Assembly: GCF_050320075.1 (NCBI RefSeq)
Contig: NZ_CP190018.1
DNA: 64,000 bases
From: Escherichia coli
GTDB lineage: Bacteria > Pseudomonadota > Gammaproteobacteria > Enterobacterales > Enterobacteriaceae
Direction: 5' to 3' (one strand)
Under the pieces are notes generated by a model, which was not told the origin of the DNA, made no database searches, and saw only the letters and a program-made list of their open reading frames with translations. Below are positions 24,665 through 56,153 of the stretch, piece after piece. The translations under genes were made by a program, and so were the position numbers. Each line of letters starts with the position of its first letter. Within the stretch, counting starts at the first letter, position 1.

Positions 24665-25798
24665 TTAAACCGTCAGCACCACACAGCTGTCCACTTCCCA
24701 GCACAAACGCACTTCATCGCCCCAGGTCGGTAACCCTTTACGATGACGATGGGCGTTTTGTAGCTGGGCGCTAATCATCTGCCCACTTTTCAGACGAACG
24801 TGATACACCGAAAGATCGCCGAGATAGGCAATGTGTATCACCTCCCCCACCGCGAAGTTACAACCATTGGCGGGCGGCTCTTCGCAAAGCATGATTTTTT
24901 CCGGACGCAGCGCTACGTGTACCGGCACGTTATCGACCACCGAAGCATCTACATCGACTTTCAGTGGATGCACCAGCCCCGGCGAATAAAGCACCAGACC
25001 ATCTTCCTGGCGCTTTTTGAGTACACATTCAAAGACATTAACCGAGCCAATAAATTCGGCGCTGTAGCGGGTGGTCGGATGCTCATAGATCTCTTCCGGT
25101 TCGCCAATCTGGACAAATTTCCCACGATTCATAATGGCGATGCGCCCCGCCATGGTCATCGCCTCTTCCTGATCGTGGGTGACCATCACACAAGTCACAC
25201 CGACACGCTCCAGAATATCCACCACTTCAAGCTGCATCCGGTCACGCAGCTTTTTATCCAGCGCGCCCATAGGCTCATCGAGCAGTAATAGTTTCGGGCG
25301 TTTGGCAAGGCTTCGGGCCAGGGCCACACGCTGTCGCTGACCACCGGAAAGCTGATGCGGTTTGCGTTTGGCGAACTCCTGCATATGCACCAGGCCGAGC
25401 ATCTCATTGACCCGGCTGGCAATTTCCGCTTTCGGCAATTTGTCCTGTTTCAGGCCAAAAGCGATATTCTGTTCCACGGTCATATGCGGAAACAGCGCGT
25501 AAGACTGAAACATCATATTGATGGGGCGCAGGTAAGGCGGAACCTGTGACAAATCGACGCCATCGAGCATAATCTGCCCGGCAGAAGGTTGTTCGAAACC
25601 TGCCAGCATACGCAGCAGCGTGGACTTGCCACAGCCGGATGCGCCCAGCAGCGCGAAGATTTCGCCTTTATAGATGGTCAGGCTGACATCATCGACCGCA
25701 TGCTGACCATCGTAGGATTTGGTGAGGTTGCGGATTTCTAATAGCGGCGTCAGCGCCTTACGGGTTTTCGCCTGCGGGCGAGGGATAGCGTCATTCAC
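24665..25798 (-). CDS. potG: Putrescine ABC transporter ATP-binding subunit
   Basis: 377-aa product if translation starts at GTG (plus-strand CAC 25796-25798, protein then begins MNDAIPRP); Walker A GASGCGKST, signature LSGGQRQR; track ORF extends 27 codons further upstream. Confidence 0.88.
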   Translation of the reverse strand: MNDAIPRPQAKTRKALTPLLEIRNLTKSYDGQHAVDDVSLTIYKGEIFALLGASGCGKSTLLRMLAGFEQPSAGQIMLDGVDLSQVPPYLRPINMMFQSYALFPHMTVEQNIAFGLKQDKLPKAEIASRVNEMLGLVHMQEFAKRKPHQLSGGQRQRVALARSLAKRPKLLLLDEPMGALDKKLRDRMQLEVVDILERVGVTCVMVTHDQEEAMTMAGRIAIMNRGKFVQIGEPEEIYEHPTTRYSAEFIGSVNVFECVLKKRQEDGLVLYSPGLVHPLKVDVDASVVDNVPVHVALRPEKIMLCEEPPANGCNFAVGEVIHIAYLGDLSVYHVRLKSGQMISAQLQNAHRHRKGLPTWGDEVRLCWEVDSCVVLTV

Positions 25799-25892
25799 GG
25801 CAGCTCTCCGGCATTGAATGTGTGCAAGCGCACCATAATGGTGCGAATTGCCGGCGGGTGTGGTGCGCCCGTCCGGCATCTACGACTGCGGA

Positions 25893-28882: not shown

Positions 28883-29605
28883 TTAGCGCGTAGCCCAACC
28901 CTGTTTGTGCAAATAATCCAGTATAAATGGGCGGCTTTCTTTAATGATTGTTCGGCGGATATGATCGCTCCAGGTATCCCGGCGATTATTGCTGCCACGG
29001 GTGAGGTTATATTCCGCCAGTTGTTCGTCATACTGCGCCAGTGCGTCTTTATCCAGCGGTTGATAGTTGTTTTCATGCACCAAAATGGAGGCCGGTAAAC
29101 GCGGCTTAAGATCCGGATTATCCGCAGGCCAGCCAAGGCACAGCCCAAACAGCGGCAGAACATGCTGCGGTAATTTCAGCAGTTCCGTCACCGCTTCAAT
29201 ATTATTGCGCAGGCCGCCGATATATACCCCGCCCAATCCCAGCGATTCCGCTGCGGTTAACGCATTCTGCGCCATCATTGCCGTATCAACGACACCGAGC
29301 AGCAATTGTTCCGCCAGGCCGAGCTGAGCATCCGGACAGATCTGTAAATGGCGGTTAAAGTCGGCACAGAACACCCAGAACTCCGCCGCTTGCGCTACGT
29401 GTTTTTGCCCGCCGGTCAGCGTCACCAGTTCATCACGTAACGCTTTGTCGGTAATGCGAATAATGCTACTGCACTGCAAAAAACTGGAACTGGACGTCGC
29501 ACGGGCGCTGTTAATAATCGCCTCACGCTGCGCTTCGGAAATGGGTTCATCAGTGAAATGGCGAATGGAGCGATGGCCACAAATAAGTTCAATGGTTGGC
29601 GTCAT
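28883..29605 (-). CDS. nfsA: Oxygen-insensitive NADPH nitroreductase NfsA
   Basis: 240-aa ORF MTPTIELICGHRSIRHFTDEPIS...; nitroreductase fold. Confidence 0.93.
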   Translation of the reverse strand: MTPTIELICGHRSIRHFTDEPISEAQREAIINSARATSSSSFLQCSSIIRITDKALRDELVTLTGGQKHVAQAAEFWVFCADFNRHLQICPDAQLGLAEQLLLGVVDTAMMAQNALTAAESLGLGGVYIGGLRNNIEAVTELLKLPQHVLPLFGLCLGWPADNPDLKPRLPASILVHENNYQPLDKDALAQYDEQLAEYNLTRGSNNRRDTWSDHIRRTIIKESRPFILDYLHKQGWATR

Positions 29606-30700: not shown

Positions 30701-30969
30701 TCGTTCCTCCTGACACTGCGTCTATCGAACACATTTTTCGCCAGTGTGGCGTTCAGTAAGATAAAGCCGCTTCGCATTCCATGCTAATATAGGCCAACGC
30801 AATTCATATAGCCGTTGATACCTAATGTGATTACACTAGTAAAATATATTGTTACTTTACTATCGTTTAGGTGCGCTGAATGAATCTGCGCCCTGAATTC
30901 TGGTAAAAAACATTATCGTAAATTACCATTTCTTTCAACAGCTTACTAGTAAACAAGAAGTTAGCCTCC

Positions 30970-32655
30970 GTGAATATAAACGTCGCCGAATTGTTAAATG
31001 GGAATTACATTCTGTTATTATTTGTGGTCCTCGCGCTTGGGCTATGTCTCGGGAAATTACGACTTGGTTCGATCCAACTGGGTAATTCCATTGGCGTTTT
31101 AGTCGTATCGCTGTTATTAGGCCAACAACATTTCAGCATTAACACCGACGCGCTTAATCTTGGCTTTATGCTGTTTATTTTCTGCGTCGGGGTCGAAGCC
31201 GGACCGAACTTTTTTTCCATTTTTTTTCGCGATGGGAAAAATTACCTAATGTTAGCACTGGTGATGGTTGGCAGTGCGCTGGTGATCGCCTTAGGGTTAG
31301 GTAAGCTGTTTGGCTGGGATATTGGCCTGACGGCCGGTATGTTAGCAGGCTCTATGACGTCGACACCGGTTCTGGTCGGTGCTGGCGATACACTGCGTCA
31401 TTCCGGCATGGAAAGCAGGCAGCTCTCACTGGCACTGGATAATCTGAGCCTCGGGTATGCCTTAACCTATTTAATCGGTCTGGTGAGTTTGATTGTTGGT
31501 GCGCGTTACTTGCCGAAATTGCAGCATCAGGACTTACAGACCAGCGCCCAGCAAATCGCCCGCGAACGTGGCCTGGACACAGATGCCAACCGTAAGGTTT
31601 ATTTGCCGGTGATCCGCGCCTACCGCGTCGGCCCGGAGCTGGTAGCCTGGACCGACGGCAAAAATCTGCGTGAACTGGGTATTTATCGACAAACCGGCTG
31701 CTACATTGAACGTATTCGGCGTAACGGGATTCTGGCAAATCCAGACGGTGATGCCGTACTACAAATGGGCGATGAAATAGCGTTGGTAGGCTATCCTGAC
31801 GCCCACGCCCGACTCGATCCCAGTTTCCGTAATGGCAAAGAAGTTTTCGATCGTGACCTTCTCGACATGCGTATCGTCACTGAAGAAGTGGTCGTTAAAA
31901 ACCATAACGCTGTTGGCAAACGCCTGGCACAACTGAAGTTGACCGATCACGGTTGCTTCCTTAACCGCGTCATTCGTAGCCAGATTGAGATGCCGATTGA
32001 TGACAACGTCGTGCTTAACAAAGGTGACGTTTTACAAGTCAGCGGCGATGCCCGCCGGGTAAAAACCATCGCCGATCGCATCGGCTTTATCTCGATTCAC
32101 AGCCAGGTCACTGACTTGCTGGCATTCTGCGCCTTCTTTGTTATTGGGCTGATGATCGGGATGATCACCTTCCAGTTCAGCACATTCAGTTTCGGCATGG
32201 GGAACGCTGCCGGGTTGTTATTCGCCGGAATTATGCTGGGCTTTATGCGTGCTAACCACCCGACCTTCGGTTACATTCCGCAGGGTGCATTAAGCATGGT
32301 GAAGGAGTTCGGCTTGATGGTGTTTATGGCAGGCGTTGGTCTGAGCGCTGGTAGCGGTATTAATAACGGCCTGGGCGCGATTGGCGGTCAGATGTTGATT
32401 GCCGGATTGATTGTCAGTCTGGTGCCAGTGGTTATCTGCTTCTTGTTCGGTGCTTATGTATTGCGAATGAACCGCGCACTGTTGTTCGGCGCAATGATGG
32501 GCGCACGCACCTGCGCGCCGGCAATGGAGATCATCAGTGATACAGCTCGCAGTAATATCCCGGCGCTGGGCTATGCGGGCACTTACGCAATCGCCAACGT
32601 CCTGCTGACGCTGGCAGGGACAATCATCGTCATGGTATGGCCAGGATTAGGATAA
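30970..32655 (+). CDS. ybjL: Putative transporter YbjL (AAE family, two TrkA-C/RCK_C domains)
   Basis: 561-aa ORF starting at GTG 30970; N- and C-terminal membrane halves separated by a soluble regulatory region. Confidence 0.9.
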
Positions 32656-32731: not shown

Positions 32732-32810
32732 GCCACTGCTTTTCTTTGATGTCCCCATTTTGTGGAGCCCATCAACCCCGCCATTTTGGTTCAAGGTTGG
32801 TGGGTTTTTT
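32732..32810 (+). ncRNA. rybB: RybB small regulatory RNA (sigma-E-dependent, Hfq-binding)
   Basis: GCCACTGCTTTTCTTTGATGTCCCC... followed by terminator hairpin and TTTTTT; near-exact match to the RybB sequence as I remember it; sits between ybjL and rcdA. Confidence 0.85.
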
Positions 32811-32829
32811 GTTGCCTAAAATTTATCTA

Positions 32830-44303: not shown

Positions 44304-44690
44304 ATGGGTGTGTATAAGGCAAGACGATTCAGCCAAAGCACGAAAAAACTTGGTATTCACGATAAAGTTCTCATGGCTGCCGCTGAAGAAGTGATGCAGG
44401 GCATATGGGAGGCTGATTTAGGTAGCGGTGTCATCAAAAAACGTTTACCCCTCCAACAAGGAAAGAGTGGTGGAGCCAGAACAATTATCTTTTTTAAATC
44501 AGCAAATCATGTGTTTTTTTATGATGGTTGGTCCAAGAGTGGTCTAAGCAGTAAAGGAACCAAAGAAATCGAAGATGATGAACTGGCGGCCTACAAAAAA
44601 ATGGCAAATGCATTTCTGGCCTTTAGCAATAAGCAAATAGAGGATTTGATCGAAACTGGCTTTTTGATTGAGGTGAAAAATGAGCGATAA
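44304..44690 (+). CDS. Putative type II toxin, RelE/HigB-like (DUF1044-type)
   Basis: 128-aa ORF with AAGGA RBS; motif GKSGGARTIIFF resembles the KGKSGG(Y/V)R(V/I)IY core of RelE/HigB-family toxins; 11-bp overlap with a downstream HTH gene. Confidence 0.6.
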   Translation: MGVYKARRFSQSTKKLGIHDKVLMAAAEEVMQGIWEADLGSGVIKKRLPLQQGKSGGARTIIFFKSANHVFFYDGWSKSGLSSKGTKEIEDDELAAYKKMANAFLAFSNKQIEDLIETGFLIEVKNER

Positions 44691-48487: not shown

Positions 48488-48502
48488 GGTAATGACTCCA
48501 AC

Positions 48503-49006
48503 TTATTGATAGTGTTTTATGTTCAGATAATGCCCGATGACTTTGTCATGCAGCTCCACCGATTTTGAGAACGACAGCGACTTCCGTCCCAGCCGTGCCA
48601 GGTGCTGCCTCAGATTCAGGTTATGCCGCTCAATTCGCTGCGTATATCGCTTGCTGATTACGTGCAGCTTTCCCTTCAGGCGGGATTCATACAGCGGCCA
48701 GCCATCCGTCATCCATATCACCACGTCAAAGGGTGACAGCAGGCTCATAAGACGCCCCAGCGTCGCCATAGTGCGTTCACCGAATACGTGCGCAACAACC
48801 GTCTTCCGGAGCCTGTCATACGCGTAAAACAGCCAGCGCTGGCGCGATTTAGCCCCGACGTATCCCCACTGTTCGTCCATTTCCGCGCAGACGATGACGT
48901 CACTGCCCGGCTGTATGCGCGAGGTTACCGACTGCGGCCTGAGTTTTTTAAATGGCGGAAAATCGTGTTGAGGCCAACGCCCATAATGCGGGCAGTTGCC
49001 CGGCAT
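48503..49006 (-). CDS. insB: IS1 InsB (C-terminal catalytic part of InsAB' transposase, made by -1 frameshift)
   Basis: 167-aa ORF overlapping insA in the -1 frame; sequence matches IS1 InsB. Confidence 0.93.
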
Positions 49007-49200
49007 CCAACGCCATTCATGGCCATATCAATGATTTTCTGGTGCGTACCGGGTTGAGAAGCGGTGTAAGTGAACTGCAGTTGCCATGTTTTACGGCAGT
49101 GAGAGCAGAGATAGCGCTGATGTCCGGCGGTGCTTTTGCCGTTACGCACCACCCCGTCAGTAGCTGAACAGGAGGGACAGCTGATAGAAACAGAAGCCAC
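48925..49200 (-). CDS. insA: IS1 InsA (transposition repressor / N-terminal part of InsAB' transposase)
   Basis: 91-aa [45 protein letters not shown]... (zinc finger plus HTH). Confidence 0.95.
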
Positions 49201-49255
49201 TGGAGCACCTCAAAAACACCATCATACACTAAATCAGTAAGTTGGCAGCATCACC

Positions 49256-51568: not shown

Positions 51569-53107
51569 TTATTGCAAATCCGCGTCTTCAAAGCTGAAAC
51601 CGGTGTCTGGCATGATCCAAAAACCGGTCAGGTTTTTACTGTGTGCCGACACCAGTTTTTCTACCACCAGCGGGATCCACGGCGACTCTTGCCAGATGAT
51701 ATCCTGCGCCGCCTTATATAAACGGGTCTTTTCTGCCGGATCATTAGTTTTCAGTGCCTGAGCCAGGAAGTCATCCACCTGTTTATTGCTGTAAAACGCG
51801 GTATTAAACAGCGTCGGTGGCCAGTTCTGCGAGGCAAACAGCGGCGATAGTGCCCAGTCCGCTTCGCCGGTTGAAGCCGACCAGCCAGTGTAGAACATCC
51901 GCACGCCGCTCTCTTTTTGCCCTTTACCTTCAACTTCTGCCGCCCGCTGTCCGGCATCCATCGCAGTCACCTGGGCTTTAATCCCGACCTGCGCTAACTG
52001 CTGCTGGGTAAATTGCAGCACTTTCTGCGCGGTGCTGTGGTTATGTGACGACCACAGCGTGGTATTGAAACCGTTGGGATATCCCGCCTCTTTCAGTAAT
52101 TCGCGCGCTTTCACTGGATCGTAAGGCCACGGTTTATAACTTTGCGCGTAGGCGATACTCGGCGGTACCACACCAGTAGCTGGCGTTGCATAGCCCGCGA
52201 AGGCCACTTTCACCAGCGCCGGGCGGTTAATGGCGTAATTCAGCGCCTCACGGACCTTCGGGTTATCGAACGGCTTTTGCGTCACGTTCATACTGATATA
52301 ACGCTGCATAATTGACGGACTGGCCATCAACTCGATATTTTTGTTTTTCTCCAGCAGTGCGGCCTGCTCGTAGGGAATGGGGAAAGCAAACTGCGCTTCA
52401 CCGGTTTGCAGCATTGCCGCGCGGGTGTTGTTATCCGCCACCGGACGCCAGGTTATGCTGTCCAGTTTGGGCAATCCTGGCTGCCAGTAACCCGCGAATT
52501 TTTTCACCTTCACAAAATCGGTCTGATTCCAGGTATCCAGTTCATACGGCCCGGTTCCCACCGGATGAAAACCAATCTCCTTGCCATATTTTTCCAGCGC
52601 TGCCGGCGAAATCATCGCGGTCGCCGGATGGGCAAGAATATTAATAAACGCTGAGAACGGCTGTTTGAGGGTAATCTTTACCGTTGTTGGATCGATCGCT
52701 TCCGTTTTGGCAATATTCTTATACAGGTTGTAGCGTTTAAGATGATTCGCCGGATCGCTGGCCCGGTCCAGATTCGCTTTTACCGCCGCTGCGTTGAAAT
52801 CGGTGCCATCCTGGAATTTAATTCCTTCCCGCAATTTCACGGTGTATGTAAGGCCGTCATCGGAAACGGTATAACTCTCCGCCAGCACGTTTTTCAGTTT
52901 CATCTCTTTATCCAGACCAAACAGCCCCTGGTAAAACGATTTCGCTACGGCCTGAGATAACGTGTCATTTGCGTCATACGGATCGAGCGTGGTGAAGTTC
53001 GATCCTACCGCCACCACCACATCTTTGGCAGCGAATGCACAAGATGCCATCAACGCTGTCGCAATGCCCAGCGCCACTAACCCACTACGGTGTACAGCTC
53101 TTGCCAT
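51569..53107 (-). CDS. gsiB: Glutathione-binding periplasmic protein GsiB
   Basis: 512 aa from ATG at 53107 ([26 protein letters not shown] signal peptide); track ORF carries an 89-codon upstream extension. Confidence 0.92.
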
Positions 53108-53126
53108 TTTATTCTCCGCCTGAATG

Positions 53127-54998
53127 TTATCTACGCATGAATGCGTATTCTGATTGTGGTTGTGCGACGTAATGCCCCGGCCCGACGCATTGCAACGAGA
53201 CGGCTGCCACCTCTTCGCCACGCAGATGAATATTGCTGGGAAGATCGTCCGACAGCAGTACACGCTGCGGTCGTTGTCGGGACGGTTCAGCGACCGGAAC
53301 TGCCGCCAGTAATTTACGCGTATAAGGATGCTGCGGGTTTTCGAAGACCGCGCGCCGTGGACCAATTTCAACAATTTGTCCGAGATACATCACCGCCACA
53401 CGATGACTAATCCGCTCTACCACGGCCATATCGTGGGAGATAAACAGATACGCAATGCCGAAATCACGCTGGAGATCGAGCAACAAGTTGATAATCTGCC
53501 CGCGAATAGAAACATCCAGCGCCGAGACGGCTTCGTCGGCAATGATCACTTTTGGATTCAATGCCAACGCGCGAGCAATGCAGATGCGCTGGCGCTGACC
53601 GCCGGAAAACTCATGCGGGTAACGCCAGGCATGTTCAGGTAACAGGCCCACGCGCTCCAGCAACCACGCAACGCGTGCAGCCGCTTCTTTACCTGTCAAT
53701 AAACCGTGTACGCGCAGCGGTTCGATAATCGAATCACCGATGGTCTGACGTGGGTCCAGCGAAGCGTAAGGGTCCTGAAAAATAAACTGAATATCCCGGC
53801 GCAATGCCTGAAGTTTGCCGGGTGACAAGGTATCGATTCGCTGACCGTTAAAGATAATTTCGCCGCCCTGCGATTCGACCAGGCGCAGCAACGCCCGCCC
53901 GGTAGTGGATTTACCGCTGCCAGACTCGCCCACCAGCGATAGCGTTTCGCCAGGCCAGAGATCAAAACTGACTTTCTCAACGGCATGCACTTCCCGCGTT
54001 ACGCGATTCAACAAACCGCTGCGCAAAGGGAAACGGGTGACCAGATTACGCACCCGTAAAACAGGTTCGCCATCCACCACCGTTTTCTGCTCGATGGGTG
54101 GTTCCTGTTTCGCTGGATGTTCAAGCGATATCAATGGGAAACGTCGGGGATAATCTAACCCTTTCATCGCACCAAGTTGCGGAACAGCAGCTAACAGCGC
54201 ACGGGTGTAAGGATGTTGCGGTGCATGAAAAATCTGTTCGACGCTACCCGTTTCCACCGCCTCGCCCTGATACATCACCAGTACCCGATCGGCAATCTCT
54301 GCCACCACGCCCATATCGTGAGTGATAAAGATAACGCCCATCGACATCTCTTTTTGCAATACTTTGATTAATTGCAGGATCTGCGCCTGAATAGTGACAT
54401 CCAGCGCGGTGGTTGGCTCATCGGCAATCAGCACCGCCGGGCGGCATGACAGCGCCATCGCAATCATCACTCGCTGGCGCATCCCGCCAGAGAGTTGATG
54501 CGGATAACGTGAAAGAATGGTTTGTGCCTCCGGAATGCGTACCTGATCCAGCATCCGCTTCGCCTCGACCATCGCTTCTTCACGACTGGCGTTCTGATGC
54601 AGACGAATTGATTCGGCAATCTGTTCACCCACAGTAAATACCGGGTTCAGCGATGTCATCGGTTCCTGAAATATCATCGCCATATCCGCACCGCGCACAT
54701 GGCGCATTTGTGCAGCGCTCTGCTCGCTAAGTTCAATCACTTCGCGACTGCGCCGCCGCAACAGCATTTGATCGCACTGCACTAAACCGCCCGCCTGTTC
54801 CAACAAGCGCATCAATGCCAGCGCAGTCACTGACTTACCAGAGCCGGATTCGCCAACAATTGCCAGCGTCTCACCGCGTTGCAGGCTAAAAGAGAGATTG
54901 CGGACCGCAGCTATTTTCTGCTGGTCCTGCATAAAGGCAATATTCAGATTTTCAACCGCCAGCACATCACCGGCATCAAGTTCATCACTGTGTGGCAA
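53127..54998 (-). CDS. gsiA: Glutathione ABC transporter ATP-binding protein GsiA (two fused ABC domains)
   Basis: 623 aa if started at TTG (plus-strand CAA 54996-54998, product begins [10 protein letters not shown]...); two Walker A motifs (GESGSGKS twice) and two signature motifs; start overlaps the iaaA 3' end. Confidence 0.85.
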
Positions 54999-55950
54999 CG
55001 GTGTCCCCTTTTTCACGGTAGATACCGGTGGTTGGCGTATCGCCTGCGTAGCCCCAGGCGCGATACATTCCTTCGGTGTTAAACGGTAGCGCGACATTGC
55101 CTTCATGGTCGATAGCGATTAAGCCACCGCTACCGCCAAGCGCAGGGAGTTTTTCCATTACTACCCGCTCGCAGGCTTCCGCGAGACTTAATCCGCCGTA
55201 ATCCATTAACGCGGCGATGTCATATGCCGCCAGCGCGCGGATGAAGACTTCGCCCGTGCCGGTACATGAAACCGCCACACTGGCGTTATTGGCGTAGCAT
55301 CCGGCACCCACTAAGGGACTATCGCCAACTCGTCCGGGTAATTTATTGGTCATTCCGCCCGTGGACGTGGCTGCCGCCAGATTGCCGTCTAAATCCAACG
55401 CCACGGCCCCCACGGTGCCCATTTTCTGTTTTTCATCCAGTGGCGCACCGCTATGGTCGAGGACTGTTGCCCCTTCCTCACGCGCTGCCATTAGTTGTTC
55501 ATAACGCAAAGGCGTGGAGAAAATCTCCGGTGAGACGCGCTCCATGCCATGAGCAAACGCAAAATTTTCTGCCCCTTCGCCAATCATCATCACATGCGGG
55601 CTTTGCTCCATCACCAGCCGGGCGGCAAGAACCGGATTACGCAGATGACTAACGCCCGCCACCGCACCGGCTTTCAGGGTGTTACCATCCATCACACAGG
55701 CGTCCAGTTCATGGGTTTCATCACGCGTAAAGACAGCGCCAATTCCGGCGTTAAACAGTGGACACTCTTCCAGCAGACGCACCGCTTCCGTCACCACATC
55801 CAGCGCACTTTCGCCCGCTTCCAGCATTTTCTGCCCGGTTTCAACAATGGCAGACAGCGCCTCGATGTAGCGTAATTCCTGTTGCAGACTCATCTGCGCG
55901 CGGCTAATTGCACCTGCGCCGCCATGAATTGCAATGACTGCTTTGCCCAT
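54985..55950 (-). CDS. iaaA: Isoaspartyl dipeptidase / L-asparaginase IaaA (Ntn hydrolase)
   Basis: 321 aa from ATG at 55950 ([15 protein letters not shown]...); autoproteolytic GT site. Confidence 0.92.
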
Positions 55951-56153
55951 AGTATTCATCCATTAAGGGTGGCTCGCCACTTTTGCTATAAATATCAGAA
56001 TTTTTATGAATTACTCATTCAATTTTTGAATATAGAAAGATGGATATGGCATGTAAAGGCAGGAGCCAGCGCTACGCCCGAGGTGGCATACAGTCTGTGG
56101 CGTTTTTCTGACATAATAGGCAAATTCGATTTTGCCTCCGCAGGAGTGTTTTC

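Follow-up and report, generated by a model that had tools for sequence, protein, structure and literature searches.

The window, that is, the whole stretch of 64,000 nucleotides analyzed here, is Escherichia coli chromosome. Its nearest complete genome is that of CFSAN061763, from which it is set apart by 16 SNPs and a differently placed IS1 copy; before about 45.3 kb, annotation coordinates of CFSAN061763 equal those of the window minus 1. Across the iaaA-gsiA locus the window is about 98.6% identical to K-12, and most of the locus is present in 5,422 of the 5,426 complete E. coli genomes. The 56 annotated CDS in the window start with ATG (50), GTG (5) or TTG (1), which is the usual E. coli mix.

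The locus is read here, with a probability of about 0.9, as an ordinary operon that annotation already covers, iaaA-gsiABCD (ybiK-yliABCD), with gsiA starting at TTG 54998 and, elsewhere in the window, potG starting at GTG 25798 and ybjL at GTG 30970. All three starts are already found in RefSeq and UniProt-style annotation, and that of gsiA was confirmed in 2016 by ribosome profiling. These non-ATG starts are correct but ordinary, being on record both in reference annotation and in a published start-site map. The RefSeq/PGAP starts of gsiA, iaaA, potG and ybjL in CFSAN061763 are those proposed here, and RefSeq for K-12 MG1655 gives gsiA and iaaA the same starts as in the window. The features of the iaaA-gsiA region are as follows, with the basis of each in parentheses (TetRP, tetracycline ribosome profiling).

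56029..56057, minus strand: candidate operon promoter, TTTACA-17-TATATT, the best sigma-70-like match 5' of iaaA (consensus scan, 10/12)
54985..55950, minus strand: iaaA CDS, isoaspartyl/beta-aspartyl peptidase, 321 aa, start ATG 55950 (RefSeq, NF007589, N-terminal peptide)
55014..55106, minus strand: rejected upstream gsiA starts (+1.9 to -3.0 kcal/mol; not conserved; stops in relatives)
55009..55011, minus strand: AAA, Lys314 of IaaA, at the position of the iaaA TAA stop of other Enterobacteriaceae (junction alignment)
55005..55010, minus strand: gsiA Shine-Dalgarno sequence AAGGGG, 6 nt 5' of the TTG, within iaaA (duplex energy, relatives)
54996..54998, minus strand: gsiA TTG initiation codon, CAA on the plus strand (sequence, TetRP, conservation)
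54985..54998, minus strand: overlap of 14 nt between the end of iaaA and the beginning of gsiA (sequence)
54963..54965, minus strand: rejected GTG, codon 12 of gsiA, used as start by the K-12 annotation of 2006, 612 aa (TetRP, relatives)
53127..54998, minus strand: gsiA CDS, glutathione ABC importer ATPase, 623 aa, TTG start and TAA stop (ORF/translation, RefSeq, NF007613)

From the TTG to the stop at 53127, the gsiA frame spans 1872 nt, or 623 codons, and reads TTG CCA CAC AGT GAT GAA at the minus-strand junction. The first-pass annotation had obtained the expected 623-aa protein only from this codon, with a 14-bp overlap with iaaA, and here the coordinates, RefSeq, TetRP and conservation all agree. 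The K-12 gene (b0829, formerly yliA; U00096.3/RefSeq) has the same TTG, the same length and the same 14-nt overlap, and its product differs from that of the window by a few residue changes, such as D11 in the window and N11 in K-12, none of them substantive. In an exact look-up, the 623-aa GsiA was present on at least 1000 contigs, whereas the forms of 659, 629 and 612 aa gave no exact match.

The ribosome would be set on TTG 54998 by the AAGGGG sequence, with both elements lying within the last 26 nt of iaaA. This Shine-Dalgarno sequence pairs with the 16S 3' end at -7.8 kcal/mol, the best value among the in-frame candidates, and relatives carry AAGGAG or AAGGGGG at the same site (-7 to -11 kcal/mol). 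Among 26 related loci of Enterobacteriaceae, 21 have a start-type codon at the homologous position (TTG in 7, GTG in 9 and ATG in 5), and in 15 of the 26 the frame is closed by a stop no more than 141 nt upstream. Of the 34 variable columns that precede the TTG, 28 fall on third codon positions of iaaA, a pattern replaced by that of the gsiA frame downstream, and amino acid identity over the upstream stretch is 95% in the iaaA frame versus 63% in the gsiA frame. A homologue of iaaA lies directly upstream of gsiA in about 66 of 80 related loci, and the gsiB, gsiC and gsiD context is annotated by RefSeq. The NCBIfam equivalog NF007613 exceeds its cut-off (1077) with 1377.7 bits; its positions 1-623 match the maximal ORF over residues 37-659, which places the first aligned residue of GsiA at the TTG, although such equivalog profiles are built from curated E. 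coli-like sequences and are thus not independent of annotation.

Ribosome profiling had been suggested as a check of the gsiA start, and such data are already published for K-12. Tetracycline ribosome profiling found a new yliA/gsiA initiation site at the TTG (Table S2, row 8), 33 nt upstream of the 2006 start and in agreement with the 2014 annotation, with signals of 46/140/71 at the TTG versus 0/0/3 at the old GTG start (Nakahigashi et al. 2016, PMC4909307). The peak falls within the iaaA CDS, 8-9 nt from the expected position of a terminating ribosome, and may therefore include some iaaA ribosomes, a caveat stated by the authors for other overlapping genes (PMC4909307). In the published data reached, N-terminal peptides were found neither for GsiA, for which the TetRP table has none under yliA, nor for PotG. 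Likewise, Giess 2017 and a 2024 Salmonella riboproteogenomics paper contain no entries for gsiA, potG or ybjL, and the readable supplements of start-mapping studies, TetRP included, hold no start-site entries for potG or ybjL. In the accessible part of TRAINSPOTTER, iaaA is the only one of these genes among the matches listed. A literature search found nothing specific on the gsiA or potG start codon or on coupling. Among solved structures there is none of E. coli GsiA; the nearest, mycobacterial Rv1281c and DppD, show homology from residue 12 and say nothing about the N-terminus.

The remaining two non-ATG starts lie in the potFGHI operon and in ybjL, with the following features.

25799..25892, minus strand: potF-potG spacer, 94 nt, with two predicted hairpins and the rejected ATG 25879 at its 5' edge (folding, comparison)
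25804..25809, minus strand: potG Shine-Dalgarno sequence GGAGAG, part of the near-invariant CCGGAGAG motif (duplex energy, orthologues)
25796..25798, minus strand: potG GTG initiation codon, CAC on the plus strand (113 junctions, upstream stops)
24665..25798, minus strand: potG CDS, putrescine ABC importer ATPase, 377 aa (RefSeq, NF008621, orthologues)
30970..32655, plus strand: ybjL CDS, 561 aa, GTG start (first start after stop; RefSeq; NF003440)

The earlier assignment of a 377-aa PotG to the GTG is upheld by RefSeq, by the equivalog NF008621 and by 113 orthologous junctions. The profile scores 845.9 bits against a cut-off of 613, and since its position 1 falls on residue 28 of the maximal ORF (1-377 on 28-404), the PotG alignment begins at the GTG. 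The Shine-Dalgarno sequence of this codon, at -6.6 kcal/mol, is the best candidate in frame, and the CCGGAGAG or CCGGAGA(G) motif recurs in essentially all orthologous potG junctions. The start codon is GTG or TTG in 113 of 113 junctions and ATG in none; these represent 82 unique sequences and about 35 lineages at 10% nucleotide divergence, and were retrieved with a search pattern that left that base free. At least six independent switches between G and T have taken place at the codon.

The ybjL frame has a stop at 30919-30921, and the first codon beyond it that could serve as a start is GTG 30970, the start also given by RefSeq, in line with the first-pass annotation. Its Shine-Dalgarno sequence is weak (-1.1), and NF003440, of the aspartate:alanine antiporter family, aligns over its full length (1-561 on 1-561) with a score of 1178.1 against a cut-off of 645.

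The alternatives to these starts are other in-frame codons. No stop interrupts the gsiA frame as far back as 55119, and this extension includes ATG 55106, ATG 55097 and GTG 55016, which would give proteins of 659, 656 and 629 aa starting inside iaaA. The longest of them is the maximal ORF, to which the ORF track supplied with the sequence over-extends the gene, and the 629-aa form was used in one old public annotation (ESD39780.1). However, none of the three codons has a Shine-Dalgarno sequence (+1.9, +0.2 and -3.0 kcal/mol, respectively) or is conserved, GTG 55016 being missing even from other Escherichia loci. The substitutions in this stretch track the iaaA frame, the longer ORFs probably being merely iaaA sequence in another frame, and both the TetRP initiation and the start of the equivalog profile are at the TTG. 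A longer GsiA is thus extremely improbable, and the in-frame stops found there in other genera, in 15 of the 26 relatives, rule such forms out. A start at the GTG of codon 12 (54965), either as the sole start of a 612-aa protein or as that of a second isoform, fares little better and is judged very unlikely. The window and many relatives do have this GTG, and the homology of the ABC domain with solved structures begins at residue 12. Nevertheless, TetRP detected almost nothing at it, its Shine-Dalgarno sequence is weak (-2.3), several relatives have GTA, GTT or GTC at that codon, and the 11 residues preceding it (PHSDELD...) are conserved as protein.

A comparable extension is found in the potG frame, whose maximal ORF opens at ATG 25879, 13 nt past the potF stop, and would yield a 404-aa PotG coupled to potF; extended forms of 385 and 400 aa are carried by public databases in other species. 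Against this start, which is rejected here and retains a negligible likelihood, stand the lack of a Shine-Dalgarno sequence (+0.8), the position of the ATG, which directly adjoins the first predicted hairpin on its 5' side, and the 27 extra residues, which are unconserved, protein conservation starting exactly at NDAIPRPQ. In addition, relatives have in-frame stops upstream of the GTG, at -3 in Rahnella, -27 in Salmonella, -45 in Buttiauxella and -57 in a Cedecea-like genome, and the equivalog profile begins at the GTG. The first-pass annotation had also warned that ORF callers err at these genes. This holds for the maximal-ORF listing and for a few public entries (the 629-aa GsiA and, in other species, the 385- and 400-aa PotG), but not for the NCBI pipeline, which is correct.

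The overlap between iaaA and gsiA appears to stem from a stop-codon loss. For the IaaA protein itself, the equivalog NF007589 scores 713.7 against a cut-off of 567, all its positions (1-321) matching residues 4-324 of the ORF that opens at ATG 55959, and a published 16-residue N-terminal peptide favors ATG 55950 over ATG 55959. At its 3' end, the iaaA frame reads ...GAA AAA GGG GAC ACC GTT GCC ACA CAG TGA on the minus strand, with the TGA stop at 54987-54985. Within the loci sampled, the 14-nt overlap is restricted to Escherichia and Citrobacter; the other Enterobacterales mostly have an overlap of 1-8 nt or a gap of 9-19 nt, and the Burkholderiales a gap of 30-110 nt. In the alignment, the junction carries CGTGAATAAGG in Leclercia, Lelliottia, Enterobacter, Phytobacter and a soil MAG, and junctions of the xGAATAAGG type are found in Superficieibacter, Pseudocitrobacter and Siccibacter. 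The corresponding sequence in Escherichia and Citrobacter is xGAAAAAGG, with one Citrobacter carrying GAGAAAGG.

In the other Enterobacteriaceae, iaaA terminates at a TAA that belongs to the ribosome-binding site of gsiA (TAAGGAG), 9-13 nt upstream of the gsiA start. Along the lineage of Escherichia and Citrobacter this TAA would have changed to AAA, as a consequence of which IaaA reads eight codons further, with the tail KGDTVATQ, into gsiA. The comparison of junctions therefore suggests that the 14-nt overlap arose by a lineage-specific loss of the iaaA stop codon, which ran IaaA through the ribosome-binding site of gsiA.

Translational coupling had been proposed for both operons on account of these starts. 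A non-ATG start codon does not imply coupling. The 14-nt overlap of iaaA and gsiA, the 9-nt gap between potG and potH (TAAGGAG) and the 4-nt ATGA overlap of potH and potI are, judged from sequence, compatible with coupling. The proposal finds no sequence basis at the potF-potG junction, a 94-nt gap with two predicted hairpins, and this distance indicates that potG is initiated independently of potF. The spacer folds at -38 kcal/mol (z = -1.8), only marginally better than shuffled sequences; in other genera it measures 87-203 nt and cannot be aligned between genera, and it has no match in Rfam. Other ABC operons, such as those with malE-malF and hisJ-hisQ, are known to carry hairpins or REP elements in the interval that separates the gene of the binding protein from the membrane or ATPase genes. 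The potF-potG spacer resembles them in having two predicted hairpins right after the binding-protein gene, but differs in its marginal fold, its lack of conservation between genera and the absence of an Rfam match.

For iaaA and gsiA, coupling is plausible. Ribosomes finishing iaaA would cross and unfold the gsiA start region, a passage that would probably link the synthesis of GsiA to that of IaaA, while the weak TTG would probably lower GsiA synthesis. Coupled overlapping pairs of E. coli include trpE-trpD and trpB-trpA, with ATGA or TGATG junctions. As in these pairs, both genes share a strand and an operon, and the gsiA start and its Shine-Dalgarno sequence fall in the final part of the upstream gene; unlike them, the overlap is of 14 nt rather than 1 or 4, the start is TTG, and the pair is only a candidate for coupling. 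Overlaps of the classic type are also found in the window at potH-potI (ATGA) and, with 1 nt, at moeA-moeB, artQ-artM and ybjJ-ybjI.

The main alternative is that translation of gsiA begins de novo with free 30S subunits and that the overlap is a neutral by-product of the iaaA stop loss, with no role in coupling. This explanation, somewhat doubtful but of real weight, is favored by the strong and conserved Shine-Dalgarno sequence of gsiA, by a junction geometry that varies freely among relatives (in Enterobacterales anything between the 14-nt overlap and a gap of 19 nt, in Burkholderiales 30-110 nt), and by secondary structure around the start that is not conserved. On the other hand, almost all of the Enterobacterales sampled keep the stop of iaaA no more than about 20 nt away from the start of gsiA, and close gene junctions usually show at least partial coupling. 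The E. coli start region is, moreover, covered by a predicted stable hairpin (-44 kcal/mol, z = -3.2) whose 5' arm lies within iaaA. As a conserved coupling device this hairpin was rejected, because the E. coli fold has no cross-genus consensus: an alignment of 16 Enterobacteriaceae junctions yielded no consensus structure at the gsiA start (energy of about 0, one compensatory pair). Explanations based on an internal promoter or terminator were also set aside, with consensus-scan counts at chance level; the scan found no promoter-like site from the iaaA start to gsiA.

The fact that ATG is found at the homologous codon in 5 of 21 relatives means that gsiA lacks the pattern of a kept weak codon. 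For potG, the comparison of the 113 junctions raises the tentative but quite real possibility that the start is actively kept non-ATG, under selection for a deliberately weak start. A maintained non-AUG start that limits or regulates initiation is known from the AUU of infC. The potG pattern, never ATG over about 35 lineages, is as expected of such a kept weak codon, although potG differs in having no known regulatory mechanism. If the possibility is true, the retention of non-ATG codons at potG would run counter to the general trend in prokaryotes, where selection favors AUG starts (Belinky et al. 2017, PMC5622118).

The significance of these starts goes little beyond annotation hygiene. They do provide a clean worked example of how a start site can be settled without experiment by combined sequence evidence, namely the interchange of TTG, GTG and ATG behind a fixed Shine-Dalgarno sequence, the in-frame stops of relatives, and the switch in codon-position variation at the start. 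Beyond this, the overlap born of stop-codon loss and a potG start that is apparently never ATG may be of interest for operon stoichiometry: a weak, possibly IF3-sensitive potG start would, if selection does maintain it, keep the level of the ATPase subunit lower than that of PotF, the binding protein.

The gene gsiA, which encodes the ATPase of the glutathione ABC importer, begins at a TTG located inside the 3' end of iaaA, the isoaspartyl/beta-aspartyl peptidase gene upstream. This start is supported by several lines of evidence that all agree: the Shine-Dalgarno site, conservation among relatives, the reading-frame signal, the protein family profile, and published ribosome profiling. At the junction, the minus strand reads GAA AAA GGG GAC ACC GTT GCC ACA CAG TGA in the iaaA frame, with the gsiA frame TTG CCA CAC AGT GAT GAA embedded in it, which places the two signals as follows:

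54998-54996, minus strand: TTG start of gsiA, read from the sequence; 623 codons to the stop at 53127
54987-54985, minus strand: TGA stop of iaaA, read from the sequence; overlap with gsiA of 14 nt

On re-reading the sequence, all the coordinates of the first-pass annotation (the gsiA, potG and ybjL starts and the overlap) proved correct. A purely mechanical ORF list extends gsiA to an ATG at 55106 (659 aa) and potG to an ATG at 25879 (404 aa), the latter without a Shine-Dalgarno site; these must be the upstream extensions that the first-pass annotation had pointed out in the track it was given. RefSeq/PGAP annotates identical gsiA, potG and ybjL starts in strain CFSAN061763, and identical gsiA and iaaA starts in K-12. 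The sequence AAGGGG, 6 nt upstream of the TTG, has a predicted duplex energy of -7.8 kcal/mol with the 16S rRNA 3' end, the best among the in-frame candidates; the values are +1.9 and +0.2 for the upstream ATGs, -3.0 for an upstream GTG and -2.3 kcal/mol for the codon-12 GTG.

The comparison covered 80 loci from species genomes, with iaaA directly upstream in about 66. Of 26 related Enterobacteriaceae loci, 21 have a start codon at the position homologous to the TTG (TTG in 7, GTG in 9, ATG in 5), where chance would give a start-type codon at about 5% per codon, and across these 26 loci the homologous codon always follows a sequence of the AAGGAG or AAGGGG type (-5.5 to -11.3 kcal/mol). In 15 of the 26 loci an in-frame stop at most 141 nt upstream excludes counterparts of the 659- and 656-aa forms, and in 8 a stop at most 51 nt upstream excludes the 629-aa form. 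The exact 623-aa protein occurs on at least 1000 contigs in public protein collections, in which no exact extended form was found; the 629-aa variant persists in one old annotation.

The reading-frame signal was followed in six Escherichia and Citrobacter sequences, over the 108 nt leading up to the TTG and downstream of the iaaA stop. Upstream, 28 of 34 variable columns are iaaA third codon positions, and the translations share 95% of their amino acids in the iaaA frame versus 63% in the gsiA frame. Past the iaaA stop it is the gsiA frame that carries the signal: third positions of gsiA account for 30 of the 58 variable columns, and identity stands at 76% versus about 49%. All 623 positions of the NCBIfam GsiA equivalog are covered by an alignment that begins exactly at the TTG, although this profile is not fully independent of annotation.

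The ribosome-profiling check proposed for gsiA has in effect been published for K-12. Using tetracycline-inhibited ribosome profiling (TetRP), Nakahigashi et al. 2016 (PMC4909307, Table S2, row 8) place initiation of yliA, as gsiA was formerly called, newly at a TTG that precedes the start annotated in 2006 by 33 nt and agrees with the 2014 annotation. In three samples the TTG gave signals of 46, 140 and 71, and the 2006 start, which is the codon-12 GTG at window position 54965, gave 0, 0 and 3, so initiation lies at the TTG with almost none at the old start. The peak falls inside iaaA, a placement that the authors call difficult for some other genes (PMC4909307), and no N-terminal peptide of GsiA is on record. 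The window thus carries K-12 gene b0829 (yliA/gsiA), starting where the annotation has it. This start is already known: the annotation was revised to it at some point from 2006 to 2014, and TetRP confirmed it in 2016.

The iaaA-gsiABCD operon lies on the minus strand and adjoins the divergent moeAB genes. Window positions 53000-56100 are matched in 5,425 of 5,426 complete E. coli genomes, with most of the stretch present in 5,422, and are 100% identical to CFSAN061763 and 98.6% identical to K-12 MG1655. Over the full 64 kb, CFSAN061763 differs by 16 SNPs and one IS1 copy at a different position, which indicates a closely related strain. This IS1 copy (768 bp, 48488-49255) lies a short way downstream of gsiD, where it is inserted in the 5' part of pdeI (yliE); in the near-identical CFSAN061763 an IS1 sits in the neighbouring diguanylate cyclase gene instead. 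Just 2 of the 5,426 genomes have this exact pdeI-IS1 junction; in others IS1 is found at different places in pdeI. Two further features of the window are listed below; RybB is its only Rfam match.

about 14713-15951, minus strand: pentapeptide-repeat protein gene, a RefSeq pseudogene with the C-terminus missing
32735-32813, plus strand: RybB small RNA (Rfam RF00110, 104.8 bits), just downstream of ybjL

With the start position of gsiA, its Shine-Dalgarno site and the K-12 initiation footprints established, translational coupling to iaaA is plausible from the layout of the junction. Both the Shine-Dalgarno site and the TTG lie inside iaaA, so that they are traversed by each ribosome that completes iaaA; such ribosomes should keep the gsiA start site unfolded, and re-initiation at gsiA after termination 14 nt downstream may occur. 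For the 111 nt surrounding the E. coli start (54950-55060, minus strand), the predicted fold has an energy of -44.2 kcal/mol (z = -3.2); in it, iaaA codons (ACCACCGGUAUC) pair with gsiA codons 7-11 (GAUGCCGGUGAU). The 5' arm of this predicted hairpin is iaaA coding sequence, and the hairpin encloses the gsiA Shine-Dalgarno site and TTG, a layout hinting at what coupling by unfolding would look like. The hairpin is not kept in Citrobacter or more distant genera, and an alignment fold of 16 genera, with an energy of about zero, reveals no conserved structure around the start. Because of this lack of conservation, the alternative that iaaA and gsiA are not functionally coupled is given an appreciable, if minority, chance. 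A sequence scan found no promoter-like sites between the iaaA start and gsiA; its best site lies further upstream:

56057-56029, upstream of iaaA: best promoter-like site, in a scan whose counts are at chance level

Another non-ATG start is that of potG, the gene for the putrescine ABC importer ATPase, located at:

25796-25798, minus strand: GTG start of potG (377 aa), preceded by CCGGAGAG (-6.6 kcal/mol)

Besides this Shine-Dalgarno site, the GTG is borne out by the homologous codon, which is GTG or TTG in eight genera, and by in-frame stops upstream at -3 in Rahnella, -27 in Salmonella, -45 in Buttiauxella and -57 in a Cedecea-like genome. Protein conservation starts exactly at NDAIPRPQ, and the PotG equivalog profile begins at the GTG. 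PotG in the window departs from the common E. coli sequence by G258C, E262K, D271Y and A283V, all within 26 residues (codons 258-283, 24950-25030), and the exact protein is found on one contig only in the public collection.

The coupling that had been claimed within potFGHI has no sequence basis between potF, the binding-protein gene, and potG, since the spacer is long (94 nt, 25799-25892, minus strand) and not conserved between genera, varying in sequence and in length (87-203 nt elsewhere). Two hairpins are predicted in it (GCCGGACGGGCG...CCCGCCGGC and GCACCAUUAUGGUGC), with a fold marginally better than shuffles (z = -1.8). The potG-potH (9-nt gap, TAAGGAG) and potH-potI (ATGA) junctions would be compatible with coupling.

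The GTG proposed for ybjL at 30970 likewise stands: it is the first possible start past the in-frame stop at 30919-30921, the sole route to 561 aa, and the YbjL equivalog aligns 1-561. The shorter starts TTG 30991 and GTG 31024 have no Shine-Dalgarno site. For iaaA, a second in-frame ATG (55959, MNTMGKAV...) lies three codons upstream of the annotated ATG at 55950 (minus strand); a published N-terminal peptide (TRAINSPOTTER, PMC13245402) favours 55950, as does the IaaA equivalog alignment. The 56 annotated CDS of the window start with ATG in 50 cases, GTG in 5 (ybjT, ybjL, potG, rimK and ybjM) and TTG in 1 (gsiA), a mix that is usual for E. coli.

Unlike gsiA, for which ATG is present in 5 of 21 relatives, potG seems never to start with ATG. 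In metagenome contigs, scanned with a pattern fixing only the last two start-codon bases and the first eight codons, the 104 junctions among the matches listed comprise 96 GTG, 8 TTG and no ATG; with genome loci added, all 113 (82 unique sequences) are GTG or TTG, behind a near-invariant CCGGAGAG. At 10% divergence they form about 35 lineages (27 GTG, 8 TTG), and a UPGMA tree implies, by parsimony, six or more G/T switches. Were changes of G to A and of G to T equally acceptable, the chance of six switches without a single one to A would be about 0.016 or less, by a rough calculation. Prokaryotes in general show selection for AUG (Belinky 2017, PMC5622118). Selective maintenance of a weak potG start is thus a tentative reading, put slightly below even odds because the metagenome draw is uneven and the tree crude. 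The never-ATG start is a minor addition to the known picture.

The 14-nt overlap itself goes back to the loss of an iaaA stop codon. In Leclercia, Lelliottia, Enterobacter, Phytobacter, Superficieibacter, Pseudocitrobacter, Siccibacter and a soil MAG, iaaA ends in ...GIY(R/Q)E-TAA, and this TAA opens the gsiA ribosome-binding site (TAAGGAG or TAAGGGGG), with the gsiA start codon 9-13 nt after it. AAA takes its place in three Escherichia sequences, one of them the window, and in three Citrobacter species:

55009-55011, minus strand: AAA codon (Lys314 of IaaA), at the position of the iaaA stop TAA in other Enterobacteriaceae

With TAA replaced by AAA, IaaA runs eight residues further (KGDTVATQ) to the TGA inside gsiA. 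More distant Enterobacterales mostly have overlaps of 1, 4 or 8 nt or gaps of 9-19 nt, and Burkholderiales mostly gaps of 30-110 nt. By this comparison the overlap is derived and specific to one lineage, the outcome of one T-to-A substitution, in a sample drawn without Salmonella and Klebsiella that does not fix the branch of the stop loss. Locally the overlap is not exceptional, given the same-strand overlaps of ybjC-nfsA (17 nt, about 29589-29605) and of a RelE/ParE-like toxin gene with its helix-turn-helix partner (11 nt, about 44680-44690). The origin of the iaaA-gsiA overlap by stop loss is, likewise, a minor addition to what is known of this operon.
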